Numbered from the stretch's first letter, positions 934 to 62,286 are shown. The stretch is DNA of 64,000 nt from Candidatus Margulisiibacteriota bacterium (GCA_041658745.1 JBAZZP010000003.1:83423-147422), one strand, 5' to 3'. The notes: generated by a model from the sequence alone, not told the origin. Translations and numbers: made by a program.

Positions 934-2115
934 TCAGCTGAATAGATTTTTTAAAAGCTGGCTTCCTCGCACAATCTTCAACTTCGCCTTCCTCGCCTCT
1001 TTCTCATTATACCCCTGAATGCCTTTCCTTGCCATTCCTTGCCCTCCCTTGCCATCATAAATTACGAAAGGCACATCGTCCGCCGTATGTGTCATGTATT
1101 TGATCGGGGTTGGATGATCAGGAAGAACGAGTATCCGGGTATCCGGGGATCCGGGGATCAGGGAATGGTTTAATATATTCCCCACAACATATTTATCAAA
1201 ATCCTCAATCGCTTTAATTTTATGTTTAATATTGCCTTCATGACCGGCTTCGTCGGGCGCTTCAACGTGAACAAAGACAACATCGTGCTTTTTTAGTGCT
1301 CTCAGAGCAGCCTTTGCTTTCCCCACATAATTAGTATCTAAATAGCCGGTTGCTCCTGGGACTTTGATGACTTCAAGTCCAATAATTTTGCCAATTCCTT
1401 TTAGCAAGCCAACAGCAGTTATAATTGCTCCGCTTTTCCCAAATTGTTTTTTAAAAGTCGGCATCGTTGGCGCAGTTCCCTGCCCCCACAACCAAATCAT
1501 GTTAGCTTTTGACTTTAAATCATGCAGAATAACTTCGCCTTCGTTCATCAAGCGCAAAATAGCTTCAGACCCCTTCCCTTTCGGTAAATAATCGTGGATG
1601 CATTGGCCGGTGATGTCATGAGGTGGGGTAGTACCAACATTTGACATTTGACATTTGTCATTTGTCATTATCGTCATGATATGGCGATAGCTAACTCCAG
1701 TGTAAAAGCAAACATCTTTGCTTCCCAACTTCGCATTGAGTTGACGAATTATTTTGTCCGCTTCCTTGGTAGAAATGTGTCCAGCCGTGAAATCTTTCAT
1801 CTTGCCGTCTTTAACGGTCACCAGGTTGCAGCGGAAGGCTAATTCATTGTTCCGCAGTTTAATTCCCAGACTAGCAGCTTCGAGTGGTCCTCTACCCGAA
1901 TAATACTTTTTGGGATCGTAACCAAAAATGCTCATAGCAGCAACGTCAGATCCGGGCGGCATTTTGGGCGGAACGTTATTGGTCCAACCAACAAGGCCAT
2001 TGCGGGCCATAAAATCCAAGTTGGGGGTTTTGGCAACTTCAAGGGGAGTTTTCCCTCCCAAAGCTTTGAGTGGCAGATCGGACATTCCATCGCCGATGAG
2101 AACTAAATACTTCAT
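934..2115 (-). CDS. apgM: cofactor-independent phosphoglycerate mutase, archaeal type
   Basis: 393 aa. N-terminus MKYLVLIGDGMSDLP..GGKTPLEVAKTPNLDFMA, plus PPHD and VLPDHPTP..HTADDVPF motifs typical of ApgM. Confidence 0.85.
   Translation of the reverse strand: MKYLVLIGDGMSDLPLKALGGKTPLEVAKTPNLDFMARNGLVGWTNNVPPKMPPGSDVAAMSIFGYDPKKYYSGRGPLEAASLGIKLRNNELAFRCNLVTVKDGKMKDFTAGHISTKEADKIIRQLNAKLGSKDVCFYTGVSYRHIMTIMTNDKCQMSNVGTTPPHDITGQCIHDYLPKGKGSEAILRLMNEGEVILHDLKSKANMIWLWGQGTAPTMPTFKKQFGKSGAIITAVGLLKGIGKIIGLEVIKVPGATGYLDTNYVGKAKAALRALKKHDVVFVHVEAPDEAGHEGNIKHKIKAIEDFDKYVVGNILNHSLIPGSPDTRILVLPDHPTPIKYMTHTADDVPFVIYDGKGGQGMARKGIQGYNEKEARKAKLKIVRGSQLLKNLFS
1021..1056. repeat. decamer array GCCNTTCCTT (3.6 units) inside apgM
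   Basis: Reads gcctttcctt gccattcctt gccctccctt gccatc. It encodes ..DGKGGQGMARKG.. and belongs to the same family as 47901-47946. Confidence 0.8.
1133..1164. repeat. 4 x octamer array ATCCGGGN inside apgM
   Basis: Reads atccgggt atccgggg atccgggg atcaggga. On the coding strand it encodes ..SLIPGSPDTRIL.. Confidence 0.8.
1641..1677. repeat. heptamer array TTGNCAT x4 plus TATCGTCAT inside apgM
   Basis: Reads ttgacat ttgacat ttgtcat ttgtcat tatcgtcat. It encodes ..MTIMTNDKCQMSN.. Confidence 0.8.
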
Positions 2116-11768: not shown

Positions 11769-12671
11769 ATGCAAACCATTATCCTTTTAGGTCCTACTGC
11801 CGTTGGAAAATCAAAAGCGGCCGTTGAGCTCGCCCTTCAAATCAACGGCGAGATAATTTCCGCCGATTCGATGCAAGTCTATCGCGGCATGGATATTGGG
11901 ACCGCCAAACCGACCAAAGAAGAACAAAAAGGCATTCCCCACCACCTAATTGATATTCGCAACCCTGAAGAAAGCTGGACAGTCTCTGATTTTGTCGAAC
12001 AATCCAACCATCTAACCATCCAACTCTCCTCAAAAGGCAAAACGCCAATCATTGTGGGAGGCACGGGACTCTATTTATGGACCCTAATTAATGGCTATAA
12101 CTTTGCCGGAATTAAATCGGATGAAGCCATCCGGAAACGATTAGAGGAGCTTCCTCCCTCTACGCTCTATGCTCAACTTTCTACGGTCGATCCCCTTTCT
12201 GCCCAAAAAATCCATCCCCACAACAAAAAAAGAGTTATGCGGGCATTGGAAGTGTTTGAATTAACCGGGGAACCGATTTCGAAGCAGCAAGAAAAATTGG
12301 CAAACGGCAAACAGCTAACAGCAACCATTATCGGATTAACTCTGCCTCGCAACCAACTTTACGAACACATCGAACAGCGAATAGAAAATATGATAAAAGC
12401 GGGACTAATTGATGAAGTCAAAGGACTTCTAGACAAGGGATATTCGAAAGGGCTTACTTCTATGCAAGCCCTGGGATATAAAGAAGTGGTTGAATTTTTA
12501 GAGGGACGATGGGATCGAGAAAAATTGATCTATGAGCTCAAAAAACGCACTCGCCACTTTGCCCGCCGGCAAATGACCTGGTTTAGACGCTTCAGAAACG
12601 TTCAATGGATCGATGCAACCCCTGAAAATTTGAATAATCTGGCAAAGTTTGCTAGAATAGAGGAATGGTAA
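11769..12671 (+). CDS. miaA: tRNA dimethylallyltransferase
   Basis: Motifs LLGPTAVGKS, ISADSMQVYRGMDIGTAKPT and RRQMTWFR. Confidence 0.92.
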   Translation: MQTIILLGPTAVGKSKAAVELALQINGEIISADSMQVYRGMDIGTAKPTKEEQKGIPHHLIDIRNPEESWTVSDFVEQSNHLTIQLSSKGKTPIIVGGTGLYLWTLINGYNFAGIKSDEAIRKRLEELPPSTLYAQLSTVDPLSAQKIHPHNKKRVMRALEVFELTGEPISKQQEKLANGKQLTATIIGLTLPRNQLYEHIEQRIENMIKAGLIDEVKGLLDKGYSKGLTSMQALGYKEVVEFLEGRWDREKLIYELKKRTRHFARRQMTWFRRFRNVQWIDATPENLNNLAKFARIEEW

Positions 12672-35525: not shown

Positions 35526-37154
35526 ATGCAGCCAGAGCCAACCATTAAAATCCTCACCGAAGAACTAATCAACAAAATCGCTGCCGGAGAAGTGGTTGAG
35601 AGACCAGCCGCTGCGGTTAAAGAATTGGTTGAGAACTCGATTGACGCCGGCGCATCCAAAGTAAGCGTTGAAATTCAAGCAGCTGGCAGTAAACTAATCC
35701 GCGTTGCCGATAACGGCCGGGGAATGAGCCAAGAAGATTTAACTCTTGCGGTCCAACGCCATGCCACTTCCAAAATTAGCACCTTGGAAGACTTATTTAA
35801 CATTCAAACCCTGGGCTTTCGCGGAGAAGCGCTCTCCTCCATTGCCGCGGTTTCAAAATTTGATATCGAACAAAATCCTTCAGGACAAGGCGTTACCGTT
35901 ACGGCCAAAGACTTATTTTACAACACTCCCGCCCGCAAAAAGTTTTTAAAATCACCCTCGACCGAAATGGGACACATTGGCGACGTAGTTTCCAAATACG
36001 CCATGGCCTACCCAGAAATTGCCTTTGAATTAATTGTGGATGGAAAACCCCTCTTGCAATCCCCTGGATCAGGAAAACTAAAAGATGCCGTCTTGTCGGT
36101 TTACGGCTTAGAACTAGTTAAAGACTTGATTGCAATCGAAGGTAAAATTAACAACATTAAGGTCTCGGGCCTCATTAGTTTGCCCACTCTAACCCGGGTG
36201 GATAAAAATTATGAGAATTTTTTTGTCAACCGTCGTTTTGTAAAAAACTTCTTACTCAACCGGGCACTTGAAGACGCTTATCGTACTTTAATTCCCAATA
36301 ATCGTTATCCTGCAGCTATTGTCTTTATCGATGTCGATCCCAAACAAATCGATGTTAACGTCCACCCCACTAAACGCGAAATAAAGTTTGCCAATAATCA
36401 GGCCGTAATGGAAGCTGTTCGCACGGTTGTTCAGCAAGCCTTAGGCAACAAAACTCCCATACTCCATACTCCAAACTCCAATCTCCATACTCATTCCCAC
36501 TGGGATCCTCCGTGCCAGAAATGGGAACCAAGCATGGCTGACGTTCTCTTTCCGGTAGAGTGTGCGACTGGTGAAAATCTTCCTTTAAGGCCTGTTAGCA
36601 CTTACAAAGATACCTACATTATTACCACTGATGGAGAAGACCTGGTAATGATCGATCAGCACGCGGCTCACGAACGAGTGTTATACGACCGGCTCACAGC
36701 TCACAGCTCACAGCAAGCCCACGTTGAACAACAAACTTTGTTATTGCCCGAAAATATTGAGTTGGATACAAAAAGTTATTCAACAACCAAGGCAAATTTA
36801 GATTTACTGCGTGAGCTAGGCTTTGATTTGGAAGAGTTTGGCGGAAATGCCTTAATTTTACGCGCTGTTCCATCAATCTCGTCCAAGCTTAACCCTAAAC
36901 AACTCTTACTAGATATCGTGGCCGAATTAGACAATCTCGGCAAAAGCGTTCAAACCGAAACCAAACAAGAAAATATCCGCAAATTAATCGCTTGCCATAG
37001 TGCAGTCAAAGCAGGGGATAAATTATCCGCTCTCGAAATTAACCAACTGATCAAAGACCTTTATGCAACCCAAAACCCCATGACCTGCCCACACGGTCGA
37101 CCAATCATGTTTCGGATGACCGAAAACGAAATTAAAAAGAAATTTGCCCGCTAG
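35526..37154 (+). CDS. mutL: DNA mismatch repair protein MutL
   Basis: Motifs INKIAAGEVVERPAAAVKELVENSIDAG, DNGRGM, GFRGEAL, and C-terminal DQHAAHER and CPHGRP. Confidence 0.92.
   Translation: MQPEPTIKILTEELINKIAAGEVVERPAAAVKELVENSIDAGASKVSVEIQAAGSKLIRVADNGRGMSQEDLTLAVQRHATSKISTLEDLFNIQTLGFRGEALSSIAAVSKFDIEQNPSGQGVTVTAKDLFYNTPARKKFLKSPSTEMGHIGDVVSKYAMAYPEIAFELIVDGKPLLQSPGSGKLKDAVLSVYGLELVKDLIAIEGKINNIKVSGLISLPTLTRVDKNYENFFVNRRFVKNFLLNRALEDAYRTLIPNNRYPAAIVFIDVDPKQIDVNVHPTKREIKFANNQAVMEAVRTVVQQALGNKTPILHTPNSNLHTHSHWDPPCQKWEPSMADVLFPVECATGENLPLRPVSTYKDTYIITTDGEDLVMIDQHAAHERVLYDRLTAHSSQQAHVEQQTLLLPENIELDTKSYSTTKANLDLLRELGFDLEEFGGNALILRAVPSISSKLNPKQLLLDIVAELDNLGKSVQTETKQENIRKLIACHSAVKAGDKLSALEINQLIKDLYATQNPMTCPHGRPIMFRMTENEIKKKFAR
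36453..36500. repeat. degenerate heptamer array (ACTCCAN x6) in the mutL linker
   Basis: Reads actcccat actccat actccaa actccaa tctccat actcatt, encoding ..TPILHTPNSNLHTHSH.. Confidence 0.75.
36692..36712. repeat. perfect (GCTCACA)x3 tandem heptamer in the mutL C-terminal domain
   Basis: Reads gctcaca gctcaca gctcaca. The 21 nt stay in frame and encode LTAHSSQ. Confidence 0.9.
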
Positions 37155-37253
37155 TGTAGGGGATCTCGACACTGCTGCTGTCTAAAAATCGTCGTTTTTG
37201 TTTTACTTAGCCTTGACCAGAGCTGATTAGGCTTGGCAATACAATTGCTAGGG

Positions 37254-37448
37254 ATTGAATATCTGGTGATCAGGAAATCTGGGAAGGGAGATCGGGGAAT
37301 CAGGATATCTGGATAGGGAAATCAAGACAGTAGAAAATTATAGATTTGAATAATTATTATGAAAATACGGTCTTAAAGGTTTATTTCCCCCTAATTTCCA
37401 GATGCCCGGATTCCCCTTTCCTGATTCCCCGATCCCCAGATACCCAAT
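37254..37448. repeat. 195-bp imperfect inverted repeat built from ATCNGGRN octamer arrays (MITE-like or cruciform-prone element)
   Basis: The left arm 37254-37322 and the reverse complement of the right arm 37383-37448 both read attgRRt-atctggNg-atcNggRa-..-agggRR-..-gggaaat. A 60-nt AT-rich spacer separates them. Confidence 0.7.
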
Positions 37449-37455
37449 AGCATAT

Positions 37456-37485
37456 TTGACAGCTCAACCCATGCTCTGTTACCAT
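37456..37485 (+). promoter_or_regulatory. sigma-70-like promoter candidate for topA
   Basis: TTGACA (37456-37461), then 17-18 nt, then TTACCAT. This is about 25 nt upstream of the ATG at 37509. Confidence 0.35.
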
Positions 37486-48486: not shown

Positions 48487-49274
48487 ACTAGATAATAGTA
48501 GACGATCGGTGCAGCCAAAATAAAGCTGTCCATCCGATCCAACATCCCTCCGTGTCCTGGAACTAATTGGGAAGAATCCTTAACTCCAGCATCCCGCTTA
48601 ATTAAAGACTCCACCAAATCACTGAACTGGGCCACGATGCCAATAATTGCCCCTAAGATCAAAGAATGTACCATTTCAAACCCAGCGTAATAACCAAACA
48701 CTCCTGCCGCAATAATACAAAAAACAAAACCGGCAGCGGCCCCCTCAATGCTTTTCTTAGGAGAAACCGAAGGCCAAAGCTTATGTCGGCCAAACTTTTT
48801 TCCCACAAAATAGGCAATGGTATCTAGCGCCCAAATCGTTACCATCATAAACAATAAATAACCACCACGTTCGGTTAGCGCTCGAATGTATAAAAAATAA
48901 CTAAAAAACCACCCAATATAAATCATGCCTAGCAAAGTTACCGCAATATCGACAATTGCTTCCTTGGGTCGTTGTTTTAAAAAGAGAGTGGCAATCATCG
49001 TTGCCAAAGCTGCTCCCGTAAAAATGGCCGATTGAGCAGGTTCCCAGTTTTTCTTTAGAGCAAGATATGCGAAAACAATAAAAAAGATGGTAAAAAAATT
49101 ACCCACCCAATAGGCCGGGTGAAAATCTTTATTGCGCATCATATTGTAAAATTCATTGATAGCAATAATGGCTAGAAAAAGCACCATGGCCAAAAAGGGA
49201 ATCCCGCCCCAATAGACACACAAGACCAAAAGAGGGACAGAGATTAAAGCCGTAATAATTCTAAGCCACATCAC
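48468..49274 (-). CDS. cdsA: phosphatidate cytidylyltransferase
   Basis: 268 aa, multi-TM, with C-terminal motif SLIKRDAGVKDSSQLVPGHGGMLDRMDS. Confidence 0.9.
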   Translation of the reverse strand: MMWLRIITALISVPLLVLCVYWGGIPFLAMVLFLAIIAINEFYNMMRNKDFHPAYWVGNFFTIFFIVFAYLALKKNWEPAQSAIFTGAALATMIATLFLKQRPKEAIVDIAVTLLGMIYIGWFFSYFLYIRALTERGGYLLFMMVTIWALDTIAYFVGKKFGRHKLWPSVSPKKSIEGAAAGFVFCIIAAGVFGYYAGFEMVHSLILGAIIGIVAQFSDLVESLIKRDAGVKDSSQLVPGHGGMLDRMDSFILAAPIVYYYLVWVILK

Positions 49275-49980
49275 TCACCTGCTCTTTAGTTTTACCAAAT
49301 TTGCGTGTACGTTTCTGAAAATCTTCGATGGCAGCAATTAGTTGTTCCCGGCGAAAATCGGGCCAATAAGTAGGAGTCACATAAATTTCGGCATAGGCTA
49401 TTTGCCATAACAGAAAATTGGACACTCGCATCTCATTAGCAGTACGAATCAGCAGGTCAGGGTCAGGCATGTTTTTTGTGTATAGATATTGGGAAATTGT
49501 TTCCTCGTTTATTTCGTCATTTTTTAATTCGTCATTCGTCATTCGTTTACATGCATCTACTAGTTCGGCTCGCCCCCCATAATTAACCATTACATTTAAA
49601 GTGATGCGAGAATTGTTTTTGGTGGTTTCCATTGAGTTCTTCATTCTTTGTTGCAAGGCCAAAGAAAATTGTTCGAGCCGACCTAAGAAGTTAAGCTTAA
49701 CACTATTGGCCATCAAATCATCGATTTCACTATCAATGGTTTGCATAAAAAGATCCATTAAAAAATCAACTTCTTCTTGTGGTCTCCTCCAATTTTCGGT
49801 AGAAAAAGCATAGACGGTTAAATATTTTACGCCAAACTCAGCACAAGCCTTGAGGATTGCTCGAACAGATTCTGCTCCTTCTTTGTGGCCAGCAATGCGC
49901 GGCAGACCCTTTGCCTGCGCCCAACGCCCGTTCCCATCCATGATAATTGCAATGTGTTGAGGAATGTTATTGCGATCCAT
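49261..49980 (-). CDS. uppS: di-trans,poly-cis-undecaprenyl-diphosphate synthase
   Basis: Motifs HIAIIMDGNGRWA, AFSTENW.RP and RVSNFLLWQIAYAE. Confidence 0.92.
   Translation of the reverse strand: MDRNNIPQHIAIIMDGNGRWAQAKGLPRIAGHKEGAESVRAILKACAEFGVKYLTVYAFSTENWRRPQEEVDFLMDLFMQTIDSEIDDLMANSVKLNFLGRLEQFSLALQQRMKNSMETTKNNSRITLNVMVNYGGRAELVDACKRMTNDELKNDEINEETISQYLYTKNMPDPDLLIRTANEMRVSNFLLWQIAYAEIYVTPTYWPDFRREQLIAAIEDFQKRTRKFGKTKEQVSDVA
49513..49548. repeat. heptamer repeats TTCGTCA (1 + 3 tandem) inside uppS
   Basis: Reads ttcgtca(49513-19) .. ttcgtca ttcgtca ttcgttt(49528-48). It encodes KRMTNDELKNDEI. Confidence 0.75.
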
Positions 49981-52427: not shown

Positions 52428-54254
52428 GTGCCTCTCGAAACCACCCATTATCCTAAAGAATATGATGTAATCGTCATTGGCGCTGGGCATGCAGGAATTG
52501 AAGCTGCCTTGGCGGCAGCTCGCATGGGTTGTCAGACCTTACTCTTAACTATCAACCTTGATACGATTGCTTTTATGGCCTGTAATCCCGCCGTGGGGGG
52601 GCCGGCAAAAAGCCAATTAGTACGCGAAGTTGACGCTTTAGGCGGACAAATGGGAGTATCGACCGATTTAACTTTCTTGCAGATGAAAATGCTCAACACC
52701 ACCAAAGGCCCAGCGGTTCAAGCTTTGAGAGCCCAGTCTGACCGCAATTCCTATCACGTCACTATGAAACAGGTCCTCGAAGAACAAACCAATCTTGATC
52801 TAAAACAAGGGATTGTCGAAGAACTTCTTTCCGACTCACGCCCCCATACGCCCACCGATTCACCCGACGCAACCACCACCGCTAGACGCATTACGGGAGT
52901 CCGCACAAATCTCAACATGGTTTACTCAAGCAAAACCGTTGTGGTAACAACAGGAACGTTCCTCAATGGCATCGTTCACGTTGGAATGACCCACATGGAA
53001 GCCGGCCGAGCAGGAGAATTGCCCGCTAAAGGTATGTCTGAAAGTTTGGTAGCACTGGGATTAGAACTTGGAAGATTAAAAACCGGGACTCCAGCCCGAT
53101 TAAATAAACGCTCGATCGATTTTTCTAAAATGATCCCGCAGCCTGGCGACGAACCACCAAAAATGTTTTCATTTGTCTGGGAATATCAACAATACGGGTT
53201 ATCGGGGAATCCGATGATCGGGGGATCTGGGACAAATCAAATTCCTTGTCATTTAACCTGGACTACTCCTCAAACTCACGCAATTATCCGAGCAAATCTT
53301 GATCGTTCACCGTTATTTCAGGGGAAAATTAAAGGAACGGGGCCTCGCTATTGTCCGTCGATTGAAGATAAAGTTGTTCGCTTCCCTGAAAAAGATCGAC
53401 ATCAATGTTTCATTGAACCGTGCGGGAGAGACACGCTGGAAATGTACGCCCAAGGCATGAGCACCAGCCTTCCCGCCGATGTACAACTAGAAATGCTAAG
53501 AACTATGCCAGGGCTTGAAAATGTAGAAATGCTGCGGCCGGGATACGCCGTTGAGTATGATTACGTCAAGCCCTCTCAACTCTTGCCCACCTTAGAAACC
53601 AAACAGATTACTGGGTTGTTTTGTGCTGGACAAATTAACGGGACTTCGGGCTACGAAGAAGCGGCCGCGCAAGGAATTGTAGCGGGGATAAACGCCGCAC
53701 TTAAAGTTAAAGAGAAAGAGCCGCTCGTGCTGGGGAGAGAAAACTCATATATTGGAACTTTAATTGACGACCTAATCACCAAAGATATTGACGAGCCTTA
53801 TCGCATGTTAACTTCACGCTCCGAATATCGCTTGCTTCTGCGACAAGATAATGCCGACCTGCGGTTGACAGAAAAAGGTTATCAGGTTGGTTTAATTTCT
53901 AAAGAACGTTTTTCTAGTTTTCAGAAAAAGAAAGCGGCAGTTGAATCTGAAACAGTTATTTCCCCGGAAACAGAAGAACAAATCGCCATAACCAAAAAAT
54001 ATGCAGGCTATATAATGCGCCAATTGCAACAAATCGAGCGTTTTAAAAAACTGGAACACAAAAAATTGCCCTCGGATTTTGATTACTCGGAACTACGAGG
54101 ATTATCTAATGAGGCTCGAATTAAACTGGCCAAAATTCAACCCCTTTCCATCGGACAAGCCACCAGAATTGCGGGAGTTTCTCCAGCCGACATTTCTGTT
54201 TTGCTAATTCACCTTGAAACCCGTGGACGCTCAAAAGAATCTATGCTAAAATAA
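52428..54254 (+). CDS. mnmG: tRNA uridine 5-carboxymethylaminomethyl modification enzyme MnmG/GidA
   Basis: Motifs [35 protein letters not shown] and [16 protein letters not shown]. The start codon is non-ATG (GTG). Confidence 0.92.
53201..53232. repeat. 4 x octamer array ATCNGRNN inside mnmG
   Basis: Reads atcgggga atccgatg atcggggg atctggga. It encodes ..[12 protein letters not shown].. and belongs to the same family as 1133-1164 and the arms of 37254-37448. Confidence 0.75.
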
Positions 54255-55652: not shown

Positions 55653-56818
55653 AAATTGCCTTCTTTTCTAATTGCTACCTGCCCTATCTTAGCGGAATAA
55701 CGATTTCCATTAAGACTCTGCGAGAAAGCTTAGAAGCTCTAGGACACGAAGTTTTTGTGGTTGGACCAGAATATCCTAATTTTAAAGAAACCGATCGGCA
55801 CGTTTTACGCTTGCCTTCCATCCCAGCCCCCTACCCAGGCTATCGTTTTGTTTTTCCGTTTTCGGCCAAAGTTTTTAAGCAGCTGAAAGAAGAAAAGATC
55901 GATATTATCCATGCTCATCAGCCATTTGGAATCGGTCTTTCTGCTCTATATTTATCACGCAAATTACAAATCCCTTTAGTGTATACTTTTCACACTCTTT
56001 TCCCCCGTTATGTCCACAACGTTCCGTTCGTTCCGTCGGTAATTTCTAAAGCGATCACTGTTCGTTATCTCCGTTTCTTCTGCAATCAAGTAAATGCGGT
56101 GATCGCTCCGTCGACGATGGTTAAAAGATATTTAAAGATCTTAGGTGTAAAAAAACCAATCGAGGTTGTGCCAACGGGGGTTAATGTCGGAAAGATACAA
56201 GACACAAGGGACAAGGCACAAATATTATCCAAACATCAAATTCCAAATAATTCAAAAATACTCCTCTTTAGCGGGAGGATTTCGGAAGAGAAAAACATCT
56301 TGTTTCTTATAAAAGCATTCCCTTCTATTTTAGAAAAAGCTCCCGGCACATATCTTGTCCTGTGCGGTGGGGGACCAAAAGAGGCTGAATACCGAAAATT
56401 TGCTAAACAATTTACCGATCGGATTATTTTTGCCGGCCAAATCCCGCACACAGAATTAACCGCTTATTATCAGGCAGCCGATCTATTTGTTTATTCTTCA
56501 ATCTCAGAAACCCAAGGGCTGGTTTTATGCGAAGCTAAGGCTAATGGACTCCCCATTGTTGCCCTTTTTGGCGGAGGATTAACCGATGTGGTAGAAAGCG
56601 GGATTGACGGATATCTTGTTCCGCGCAATCCAGCCATTTTTGTTGAGCATGTGGTCCGTTTATTAAACGACGATCAATTACGCGCTAAAATGGCCACAAG
56701 GGCCAAAGAAGATGCACTAGCCCGCTTTTCACCAAAAACAGTCGCCAATAAAATGATTTCTGTTTACCAGAATTTAGCCGGCATACAGATTTGCATATCA
56801 AAAGATAGTGCTTTATAA
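55649..56818 (+). CDS. GT4-family (GT-B fold) glycosyltransferase
   Basis: N-terminus MKIAFFSNCYLPYLSGITISI and the C-terminal E-x7-E region SISETQGLVLCEAKANGLP. Confidence 0.8.
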   Translation: MKIAFFSNCYLPYLSGITISIKTLRESLEALGHEVFVVGPEYPNFKETDRHVLRLPSIPAPYPGYRFVFPFSAKVFKQLKEEKIDIIHAHQPFGIGLSALYLSRKLQIPLVYTFHTLFPRYVHNVPFVPSVISKAITVRYLRFFCNQVNAVIAPSTMVKRYLKILGVKKPIEVVPTGVNVGKIQDTRDKAQILSKHQIPNNSKILLFSGRISEEKNILFLIKAFPSILEKAPGTYLVLCGGGPKEAEYRKFAKQFTDRIIFAGQIPHTELTAYYQAADLFVYSSISETQGLVLCEAKANGLPIVALFGGGLTDVVESGIDGYLVPRNPAIFVEHVVRLLNDDQLRAKMATRAKEDALARFSPKTVANKMISVYQNLAGIQICISKDSAL

Positions 56819-61209: not shown

Positions 61210-62286
61210 ATGTCCAAACAAACTCCCCTTTATTCCCAACATATAAAGCTTGGTGCCAAAATGGTTCCCTTTGGCGGCTGGGATATGCCGGTTTCGTATA
61301 AGGGCATCATTGAAGAGCACAATGCTACCCGCAAGGCGGCGGGACTGTTTGATATTGGCCATATGGGACTGATTAAAATTGAAGGCAAAGACGATCTGAC
61401 TTTTATCCAAAGTGTTGCTACCAATGATGCTTCCCTTTTGGCACTAAACGAATGCCAATATTCTATTCTTTGTACTCCTAGCGGTGGAGCAATTGACGAT
61501 ATTTTGGTTTACCGTTTACCGATGTTTTATATGATTATTTGCAATGCCTCTAATTTTGATAAAGTCATGGCATGGCTAACCGAAAAAGCAAAAGATTATT
61601 CTTCTTTAATTGTCGCGCCCTATGAAAATTATTGCGCTATCGCCCTGCAGGGCCCAAAAGCAATTTCGCTGACCGAAAAAACCCTAAAGGTTCCGCTTTC
61701 TTCTCTCAAACGCAACCATACGCTTTGGTGGCGCGATATTATTATCTCCCGCACCGGCTATACCGGCGAGGACGGGGTTGAAATGGTTATCGCCAAAAAT
61801 GAAGTGGCAAAGATTTGGGAAATGTTTATCGCAGCGGGAGCACAACCCTGCGGCCTGGGCGCACGCGACACCCTGCGGCTTGAAGCGGGGCTTCCACTTT
61901 ACGGACATGAATATAATGATCAGACCTCTCCGCTTGAAGTTGGTTATAGTTGGGCGGTAAAGTTGAACAAGGGAGAATTTGTTGGGCGAGAAGCATTGCT
62001 TAAACAAAAAGAGCAAGGATTAACAAAAAAGCTGGTTGGATTGGAAGTTGAGGGAAGGGCAATTGCAAGACAAGGGGGCGAAGTGTATGGTCAAGAGAAA
62101 GTAGAAAATGGAAAATTGAAAATAGGAACTGTATCGAGTGGAACGTTCTCCCCAACCCTGCAAAAACCAATTGCTTTGGCCTTCTTGGATCCAACACATG
62201 CCAAGATTGGAAACCTGGTCCAAGTTAAAATCCGCGAAAATTTCGCAAACGCTAAGATTGTTGCTAAATCGTTCTATAAGCGATAA
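61210..62286 (+). CDS. gcvT: glycine cleavage system aminomethyltransferase T
   Basis: MSKQTPLYSQHIKLGAKMVPFGGWDMPVSY.., with GYTGEDG. I prefer the ATG at 61210, because TATAAT lies at 61198-61203, 6 nt upstream. Confidence 0.92.
   Translation: MSKQTPLYSQHIKLGAKMVPFGGWDMPVSYKGIIEEHNATRKAAGLFDIGHMGLIKIEGKDDLTFIQSVATNDASLLALNECQYSILCTPSGGAIDDILVYRLPMFYMIICNASNFDKVMAWLTEKAKDYSSLIVAPYENYCAIALQGPKAISLTEKTLKVPLSSLKRNHTLWWRDIIISRTGYTGEDGVEMVIAKNEVAKIWEMFIAAGAQPCGLGARDTLRLEAGLPLYGHEYNDQTSPLEVGYSWAVKLNKGEFVGREALLKQKEQGLTKKLVGLEVEGRAIARQGGEVYGQEKVENGKLKIGTVSSGTFSPTLQKPIALAFLDPTHAKIGNLVQVKIRENFANAKIVAKSFYKR
62103..62123. repeat. 3 x tandem heptamer NGAAAAT inside gcvT
   Basis: Reads agaaaat ggaaaat tgaaaat. 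The 21 nt stay in frame and encode ..VENGKLKI.. Confidence 0.7.

Follow-up and report, generated by a model that had tools for sequence, protein, structure and literature searches.

The mnmG gene in a 64,000-nucleotide (nt) stretch of a Candidatus Margulisiibacteriota genome (GCA_041658745.1, JBAZZP010000003.1:83423-147422; hereafter the window, meaning the whole stretch that was analysed) contains, at positions 53201-53232, four consecutive octamers (atcgggga, atccgatg, atcggggg and atctggga) that are read in-frame as 12 residues. This raises the question of whether a tandem repeat has lengthened a conserved tRNA-modification enzyme. An initial annotation, made from the sequence alone, had described the tract as an insertion of about 12 residues composed of four ATCNGRNN octamers. 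Our analysis bears out the exact sequence at these positions within mnmG, but not the insertion. We consider it probable that the tract is a neutral G-rich repeat array in the unconstrained half of a disordered MnmG loop that occurs throughout the clade, and that it most likely has no function there. The features on which the argument turns are as follows.

52428..54254, plus strand: mnmG (gidA), encoding 608 amino acids (aa) from a GTG start, identified as an open reading frame (ORF) and by homology.

53175..53240, plus strand: a clade-specific long loop within insertion domain 2, spanning residues V250-Q271 and equivalent to E. coli residues 230-239 (alignment-derived numbering).

53178..53198, plus strand: the conserved half of the loop, residues W251-G257 (WEYQQYG) in the clade alignment A1, modelled as a short helix.

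53193..53200, plus strand: a degenerate fifth unit, TACGGGTT, which matches with two mismatches, contributes one more G-tract and covers the codons of the conserved Y256-G257-(L).

53201..53232, plus strand: the four octamers, ATCGGGGA ATCCGATG ATCGGGGG ATCTGGGA, whose G-rich strand is the sense strand and which encode the hypervariable half of the loop.

The product of the host gene is the enzyme of tRNA uridine-5-carboxymethylaminomethyl(34) synthesis. HMMER matched the ORF to the PDB structures of MnmG from Aquifex (2zxh, E = 5e-189) and E. coli (9hip/3ces, E = 7e-177); the homology covers residues 7-604, including both the GIDA FAD-binding fold and the C-terminal helical domain, and the precomputed Pfam domains are PF01134 and PF13932. 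A protein 100% identical to it carries the MnmG annotation in a Candidatus Margulisiibacteriota metagenome-assembled genome (MAG). The GxGxxG dinucleotide-binding motif (GAGHAG, residues 18-23) is invariant in alignment A1, as are the equivalents of the catalytic cysteines, C52 (ACNPA; E. coli C47) and C309 (GPRYCPS; E. coli C277), the importance of which has been described (PMC12397908).

When only E. coli is used for comparison, the idea of an insertion looks convincing. The initial annotation had given the E. coli segment between FSF and VPC as MGNASQHPQQ, about 10 residues, and the HMMER alignment shows that this was correct. It had also put the window's loop at about 12 residues longer, which agrees with a span from FSF to (I)PC of 22 residues against 10, and a 12-residue gap in E. 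coli (9hip_C/3ces_A) lies exactly opposite the 12 residues that overlie the octamers. The Aquifex loop, at 16 residues, differs by only about six. A different picture emerges from close relatives. Among the 120 closest MnmG homologues, which are 70-82% identical and belong to the Margulisbacteria (a sister lineage of the Cyanobacteria), Saganbacteria and WOR-1, the long loop is present in all 120, and the window's loop length is the mode, being the same in 56 of them and one residue shorter in another 32. A survey of loop lengths in 71 mnmG loci from metagenomes split them into two groups: wherever identity was at least 59%, the span from FSF to PCH measured 28-36 aa (55 in one case), and wherever it was 46-56%, the span measured 16-18 aa. 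No octamers at all are present in the nearest relatives for which DNA was available, and their loops are one residue longer (LQFPHSYPSFLSLPQ in L001, 82% identical) or one residue shorter (LEAPENPCLSLPQ in L002, 77% identical). The alignment of orthologues that the initial annotation had proposed as a check thus shows no length difference from octamer-free relatives beyond one residue, the very outcome it had named as refuting an insertion made of octamers.

The further suggestion that the surplus residues coincide with the octamers stands in the pairwise E. coli alignment, but it fails for the first half of the surplus, WEYxQYG, which is not octamer-encoded. In that half W251, E252, Y253 and Y256 are invariant in A1, and WEY is found in all 118 other homologues; only the second half of the loop is hypervariable. 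The loop ends in PQ in 108 of 118 homologues and in NQ in the window, which is an outlier in this respect. The long loop is a character of the clade, a synapomorphy of insertion domain 2 in Margulisbacteria and Saganbacteria, and not a fresh insertion. There is a lesson on method here, namely that length should be compared with close relatives, not with E. coli alone, before an adjacent repeat is held responsible for it.

The periodicity of the tract is nevertheless a property of the DNA and no by-product of the peptide. Allowing up to two mismatches, four tandem copies of ATCNGRNN matched four times in the window, against 0.00 matches in 100 dinucleotide shuffles. As the ATCNGRNN pattern was itself derived from the mnmG locus, two further independent tests were made. 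For these, the consensus ATCNGGGR was taken from the other loci that match ATCNGRNN x4, and in a codon test the 17-residue peptide was held fixed while codons were redrawn 200,000 times from the usage of 45 long window ORFs. Three or more strict ATCNGGGR units appeared at the mnmG tract in 2.1e-4 of the trials, and the periodicity therefore belongs to the DNA rather than to the peptide. Strict units also cluster, with 10 of the 21 in the window falling at 1141-1164, 37277-37441 and 53201-53232. The array is a degenerate one, as no two of the four mnmG octamers are identical, and the self-match of the loop segment 53196-53243 is 0.47 at lag 8 and 0.32 at lag 7, the tract going unseen in a lag-7 scan. 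A full-text literature search for the exact octamer-array strings returned no paper.

To place the encoded residues in the protein, we used an AlphaFold2 model of MnmG built on 54 clade sequences (mean predicted local distance difference test score, pLDDT, 75.6; predicted template modelling score, pTM, 0.79). The pLDDT falls below 50 at residues 257-268 (nt 53196-53231), which are exactly the 12 residues read from the tract and form one of seven such segments in the model, and a short helix at residues 250-255 (assigned by DSSP) precedes it. In MnmG, insertion domain 2 comprises residues 161-174 and 193-348, and a flexible region at 255-292 carries MnmG-specific motif 1 (PMC12397908). The loop (E. 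coli 230-239) sits in insertion domain 2 upstream of that flexible region, and E. coli residues 230-239 lie outside both the MnmE contacts listed in that study and motif 1. In this model, the octamer-encoded residues are most likely a disordered surface spacer.

The explanation that we favour is that the tract would be a short, degenerate, G-rich simple-sequence repeat of four to five GGGRATCN units. The array added no residues, instead overlying a segment whose length is conserved to within one residue and whose sequence is free to vary. It may have arisen, and may stay homogeneous, through replication slippage or short-range templated copying, that is, through concerted evolution of its units, with only frame- and length-preserving variants being tolerated, and it probably has no role in MnmG catalysis. 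The outer octamer units encode residues that are shared with relatives (YGLSG, and NPMIG as in homologue P0034), and evolution in situ is therefore favoured over the arrival of foreign DNA. Two alignments of the loop to relatives (LSGLPDNPVIG---LPQ) fit about equally well, one ungapped and one with a 3-aa deletion and a 3-aa insertion, so that the mutational path would have involved either no indel or a 9-nt deletion together with a 9-nt insertion. For MnmG itself the outcome is mostly negative: the loop is clade-wide, and the half of it that the repeat encodes probably serves as a disordered spacer.

Several points weigh against this explanation. Slippage as the origin of the array is something that we infer. 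The length of the array, 32 nt, is not divisible by three and plain gain or loss of units shifts the frame, so that the length could stay neutral only through compensating changes or templated overwriting. After the entries at 100% identity the next homologue is only 82% identical, and the set thus includes no near-identical strain that could reveal polymorphism in unit number. Neutrality for MnmG function would rest on the structural model and on published contact lists. Lastly, at a second locus in the window, apgM (described below), the persistence of the periodicity between genomes at 69% identity and the use of CGG for all arginine codons hint at maintenance on the level of DNA or RNA, beyond what a neutral model provides.

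Across this clade, DNA repeats of short period recur in the MnmG loop, which is a hot spot for them. Among relatives, the loop of L142 (5582-5689) contains (CACACCC)x3 and is 7 aa longer, that of L163 (1589-1693) contains the decamer array (CCCTCACGGG)x3.5, and that of L001 contains a 13-mer twice. Octamer arrays that leave the length unchanged are found in L128, (CCTAACAA)x4, and L141, (CYAGCYAC)x4. In L162 (3173-3337) the loop holds a 26-aa in-frame palindromic insertion with a fold of -56.9 kcal/mol, which is tolerated inside the gene and in whose DNA an AT-rich loop separates a G/A-rich arm from one rich in C/T. Such an additional in-frame insertion is found in some MnmG proteins of the Saganbacteria type, and large insertions at the same site are known at the protein level from P0019, P0029, P0095, P0086 and P0111.

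Short arrays inside genes extend well beyond MnmG. In an unbiased array scan (self-similarity of at least 80% over four units), the density of heptamer arrays was 10.9 per 100 kb for the window and 6.7 per 100 kb for clade loci totalling 449 kb, and the same scan found none in mnmG loci of other phyla, which amounted to 606 kb; periods other than 7 were near zero. A second tally over 501 kb (the window plus clade loci) counted 35 heptamer arrays against 0.1 in 60-nt block shuffles. Long ORFs contain 28 of the 35, the same fraction as for random windows (800 of 984), and there is thus no depletion from coding DNA. The window has seven of these arrays, each of 4-5 copies of a different unit and all inside long ORFs.

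1634-1672: CATTTGA array in apgM.

12295-12327: AAACGGC array in the ORF at 11769..12671.

36454-36492: ACTCCAT array in mutL.

36686-36719: CTCACAG array in mutL.

49519-49546: CATTCGT array in a UppS-like ORF at 49261..49980, minus strand.

56192-56221: ACAAGGN array in the GT4 glycosyltransferase gene.

62095-62125: GAAAATN array in a GcvT-like ORF.

At several orthologous sites (UppS, MnmG insertion 1, GcvT, GcvP and NadC) relatives bear arrays of differing units. UppS gives the clearest view of how such arrays evolve. Its segment KRMTNDELKND is encoded by an AATGACN array, and the orthologous segment follows GGRAE(I/L)VDA in L128 and L135. The variable position of the unit, uniform within each genome, is occupied by G in the window, by A in L128 and by C in L135, so that the threonine codon (ACG, ACA or ACC, all synonymous) covaries with the codon that follows (GAA, AAA or CAA, giving E, K or Q). 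In the UppS array, the repeat units have evolved in concert within coding DNA while the length stayed the same, and it shows that slippage or concerted evolution operates within genes of this clade.

A broader reading, which we regard as possible but put forward tentatively, is that the clade keeps arrays of 7-8 nt units in coding DNA, in-frame and length-neutral, at orthologous variable sites of many housekeeping genes as the product of a lineage-specific rewriting process, with units that evolve in concert within a genome and the mnmG tract being one footprint of it. The genes concerned are those for MnmG (two sites), ApgM (two sites), MutL, UppS, GcvT, GcvP, NadC and the GT4 glycosyltransferase. 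If this were true, a lineage-specific templated short-range copying or gene conversion, and not plain slippage, would repeatedly rewrite unconstrained segments into genome-specific repeats, and the process could share a mechanism with the unexplained STRR and GGGNATC repeats of Cyanobacteria discussed below. Within conserved genes, the clade puts up with non-triplet tandem repeats and also homogenises them. Should the phenomenon prove genome-wide, it would offer a tractable system for the origin of repeats, given that orthologous sites differ in their units and that synonymous and non-synonymous positions covary, and it could reveal a continual rewriting of disordered protein loops. We believe that these clade-wide intragenic non-triplet repeats are the part most worth pursuing.

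Arrays of the GGGRATCN unit seen in the mnmG tract also occur at two further window loci and in the genome of a relative. Those in the window are the following.

1133..1164, plus strand: a second array, ATCCGGGT ATCCGGGG ATCCGGGG ATCAGGGA, which matches with zero mismatches and lies antisense to apgM (934..2115, minus strand).

37254..37325, plus strand: the G-rich arm of inverted arrays between mutL and topA, with a 30-nt super-period of three octamers plus AGGGRR.

37388..37448, minus strand: the partner arm, G-rich on the minus strand, just upstream of a promoter-like site for topA.

The apgM array encodes ..LIPGSPDTRI.. and is one of two canonical G-quadruplex (G4) motifs of the form G3+N1-7 in the window. 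The peptide (R)I(P/T)G(Y/S)P.(T/V)RI is common to 36 of 120 homologues at this site, the length here is likewise equal to that of 36 of 120, and given the peptide the codon-resampling P is 1.5e-4. L205 and L206, whose genomes are only 69% identical at the protein level, both keep the octamer periodicity here as ATCCGGNN x4, and all six arginine codons at the octamer site are CGG, against 13% CGG usage in the window.

Between mutL and topA, the two arms (family D1, inverted pair I1) are complementary over 55 nt at 76% and, with an AT-rich centre between them, make up a hairpin-forming element of about 195 nt at 37254-37448. The predicted RNA fold of 37240-37460 has -75.5 kcal/mol (z = -4.0). 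Directly downstream, at 37456-37485, lies the promoter-like site TTGACA-18-TACCAT for topA. No intrinsic-terminator-like site was found at the element, and an Rfam scan of the whole window at gathering thresholds gave 0 hits, so that the hairpin matches no described RNA family. We also considered a role of the GGA-rich intergenic arm as a CsrA sponge, but gave it up since the predicted fold has this arm paired with its complement.

Outside the window, the MAG Yes70-34, from which L001 comes, has a four-unit octamer array in the linker of a ComEA-like ORF (L008), encoding VSGNQGIRGSGT, and L132 has an intergenic array with the same layout of three octamers plus a hexamer as at mutL-topA. Among the matches listed, with one genome per species, (ATCNGGGR)x3 occurs in at least 120 loci from many phyla, mostly in high-GC genomes, and the octamer is thus widespread; many of these loci hold long perfect arrays, and some hold inverted pairs. 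We also observed hairpins of (GGAGAAAC)n with (GATTCCCC)n in a Bacteroidota MAG (L075, 3145-3168), a Nitrospirae MAG (L080, 3801-3832), L106 (2776-2807) and a Deltaproteobacteria MAG (L042, 6471-6494). The L042 hairpin sits upstream of an lpxC-like ORF, and the other three lie inside long ORFs that resemble, by eye only, 2-oxoacid dehydrogenase E1, CbiD and FolC, where they give peptides such as ..ETEKRRNGE..SPIPRFPDSPI...

The closest described relatives of these arrays are the G-rich GGGNATC repeats of Rehm et al. (2015), whose unit is GGGAATC for Xanthomonas and GGGGA(C/T)T for Nostoc (PMC4692102). In that class four units are preferred, 70 of 186 repeats occur as convergent inverted pairs, and 89-93% are intergenic, with the 7-11% that overlap ORFs being rarer on the coding strand; G4 formation has been seen in vitro, and the repeats have no established function (PMC4692102). 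The window arrays share with them a unit made of a tract of three or four Gs plus ATC, the preference for four units and dispersed copies (three loci in 64 kb), as well as convergent inverted pairs with stem-loop potential (37254-37325 on the plus strand with 37388-37448 on the minus strand) and a minority of copies inside ORFs. The window unit, however, is 8 nt long (ATCNGGGR, equivalent to GGGRATCN) and not 7, and octamers go unmentioned in PMC4692102. Of the three window loci, two lie in-frame within genes, in contrast to the largely intergenic class, and the mnmG copy lies on the coding strand, which is under-represented there. It has also lost one G-tract, such that any G4 would need a 12-nt loop. 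Going by its sequence, the mnmG tract behaves like a member of the GGGNATC family in the form of an 8-nt variant, outside strict membership of the heptamer class. A variant of these unexplained repeats is thereby seen in the sister lineage of the Cyanobacteria.

The cyanobacterial STRR heptanucleotide repeats and the TAACTGA repeats of Beggiatoaceae are described as intergenic and possibly regulatory (PMC4679880), and heptamers have also been described in Nostoc (bioRxiv 10.1101/2022.06.06.494920). They are alike in being short non-triplet tandem arrays of 3-8 units with several unit families per genome, and the window's clade is likewise rich in heptamer arrays. Unlike the intergenic STRR, 28 of the 35 clade arrays lie inside long ORFs, and the mnmG tract has a period of 8, not 7. 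Tandem repeats that create disordered protein regions are known from Borg elements (PMC9879509), and here too intragenic repeats at the nucleotide level encode a low-complexity or disordered peptide. The mnmG unit, at 8 nt, leaves protein length unchanged, whereas the repeats within Borg genes come in units that are multiples of three and make the protein longer. A phase-variable simple-sequence repeat at a contingency locus was dropped in view of the degenerate units, the absence of a call by Tandem Repeats Finder (TRF) and a host gene with a housekeeping role in tRNA modification. Roles as a DNA-uptake sequence or a Chi-like site were dropped on the grounds that single units are not enriched (figures below).

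Rickettsia palindromic elements (RPEs) and PARCELs are selfish or neutral repeats that lie in-frame within protein genes, in surface loops of housekeeping proteins; RPEs are palindromes of 100-150 nt that add residues relative to orthologues. With these in mind, the mnmG tract could be the remnant, or one half, of a mobile octamer hairpin element that landed in-frame and replaced the old loop sequence. We regard this as unlikely. The window does hold a full inverted version of such an element at 37254-37448, hairpins of (GGAGAAAC)n and (GATTCCCC)n occur in long ORFs of other phyla (L075, L080 and L106; ORFs likened by eye), at least six clade homologues have a large in-frame insertion in the MnmG loop (P0019, P0029, P0095, P0086, P0111 and L162), and a palindromic insertion of the L162 type in that loop fits the in-frame tolerance seen for RPEs. 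The tract itself, in contrast to an RPE, is 32-40 nt long and non-palindromic and adds no residues relative to close orthologues: the loop has the clade-modal length without net change, only a small local hairpin (ATCGG..CCGAT) is present, no C-rich partner arm was found nearby, and the 87-nt segment 53165-53251 folds at -23.3 kcal/mol without one. In addition, the residues of the outer units are homologous to those of relatives, which fits in-situ evolution better.

Somewhat less likely again, in our judgement, is a functional nucleic-acid element, either a G4 or a protein-binding array, selected to regulate the translation or transcription of mnmG. There are four G-tracts on the sense strand, the known GGGNATC repeats prefer four units and form G4 in vitro (PMC4692102), L140 has five G-tracts in the same MnmG loop, and the apgM array is conserved at the DNA level. 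The relaxed G4 motif at 53196-53231, GGGTTATCGGGGAATCCGATGATCGGGGGATCTGGG, nevertheless reaches four G-tracts only by including the degenerate unit at 53193, and one of its loops is 12 nt. We gave less weight to a strong G4 function because a G4Hunter score of only 1.28-1.36 is ordinary for the window, being reached at dozens of other sites, and the predicted G4 potential of the mnmG copy is modest. The closest relatives, moreover, have no tract, and even well-studied members of the repeat family have yielded no function (PMC4692102).

Chance, or a side effect of a Gly/Ser-rich peptide, is a very improbable source of the periodicity. TRF with a minimum score of 30 reported no repeat in mnmG, the window shows no enrichment of single ATCNGGGR units (21, compared with 15.4 +/- 3.5 in shuffles), and the dipeptides S-G, I-G and N-P naturally yield ATCNGG-like strings. 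The silence of TRF is, however, explained by the degeneracy of the units and by the lack of a G-tract in unit 2, ATCCGATG, and a chance origin has to contend with the codon-resampling and shuffle results and with two further loci that bear independent arrays of the ATCNGGGR unit. We give even less credence to a recent, lineage-specific insertion of about 12 residues by expansion of the four octamers, the model of the initial annotation; the gap in E. coli falls exactly on the tract, but equal loop lengths in 56 of the 120 clade homologues, octamer-free nearest relatives within one residue, a long loop in all homologues at least 59% identical and a tract of 32 nt that is not a multiple of three all speak against it. 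Least probable of all is an assembly or sequencing artefact, since despite the error-proneness of short G-rich repeats and the derivation of both database entries from one 221,995-nt contig, with no independent assembly, the ORF is intact, the loop has the clade-modal length and its flanks are colinear with those of relatives.

In the neighbourhood of mnmG, the order frr, pyrH, a 7TM-PAS sensor gene, mnmG, a skp-like gene, lpxD and the GT4 glycosyltransferase gene is kept in relatives. Elsewhere in MnmG, the C-terminal helical domain is about 45-55 residues shorter than in Aquifex and E. coli, at residues 506-512 (about 53940-53970 in the window), and what is missing corresponds to residues 477-534 or so of E. 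coli, among them P516-E517, which contact MnmE; the clade homologues are all similarly short (about 580-634 aa). A second segment without a counterpart in E. coli or Aquifex (a 15-residue gap) lies at 52830-52880, residues about 135-151. It is C-rich, has a pLDDT below 50 and varies among clade members, and its equivalents in relatives bear heptamer arrays of GACAGAC (L002), CGCGACC (L131) and GGGGTCA (L142).

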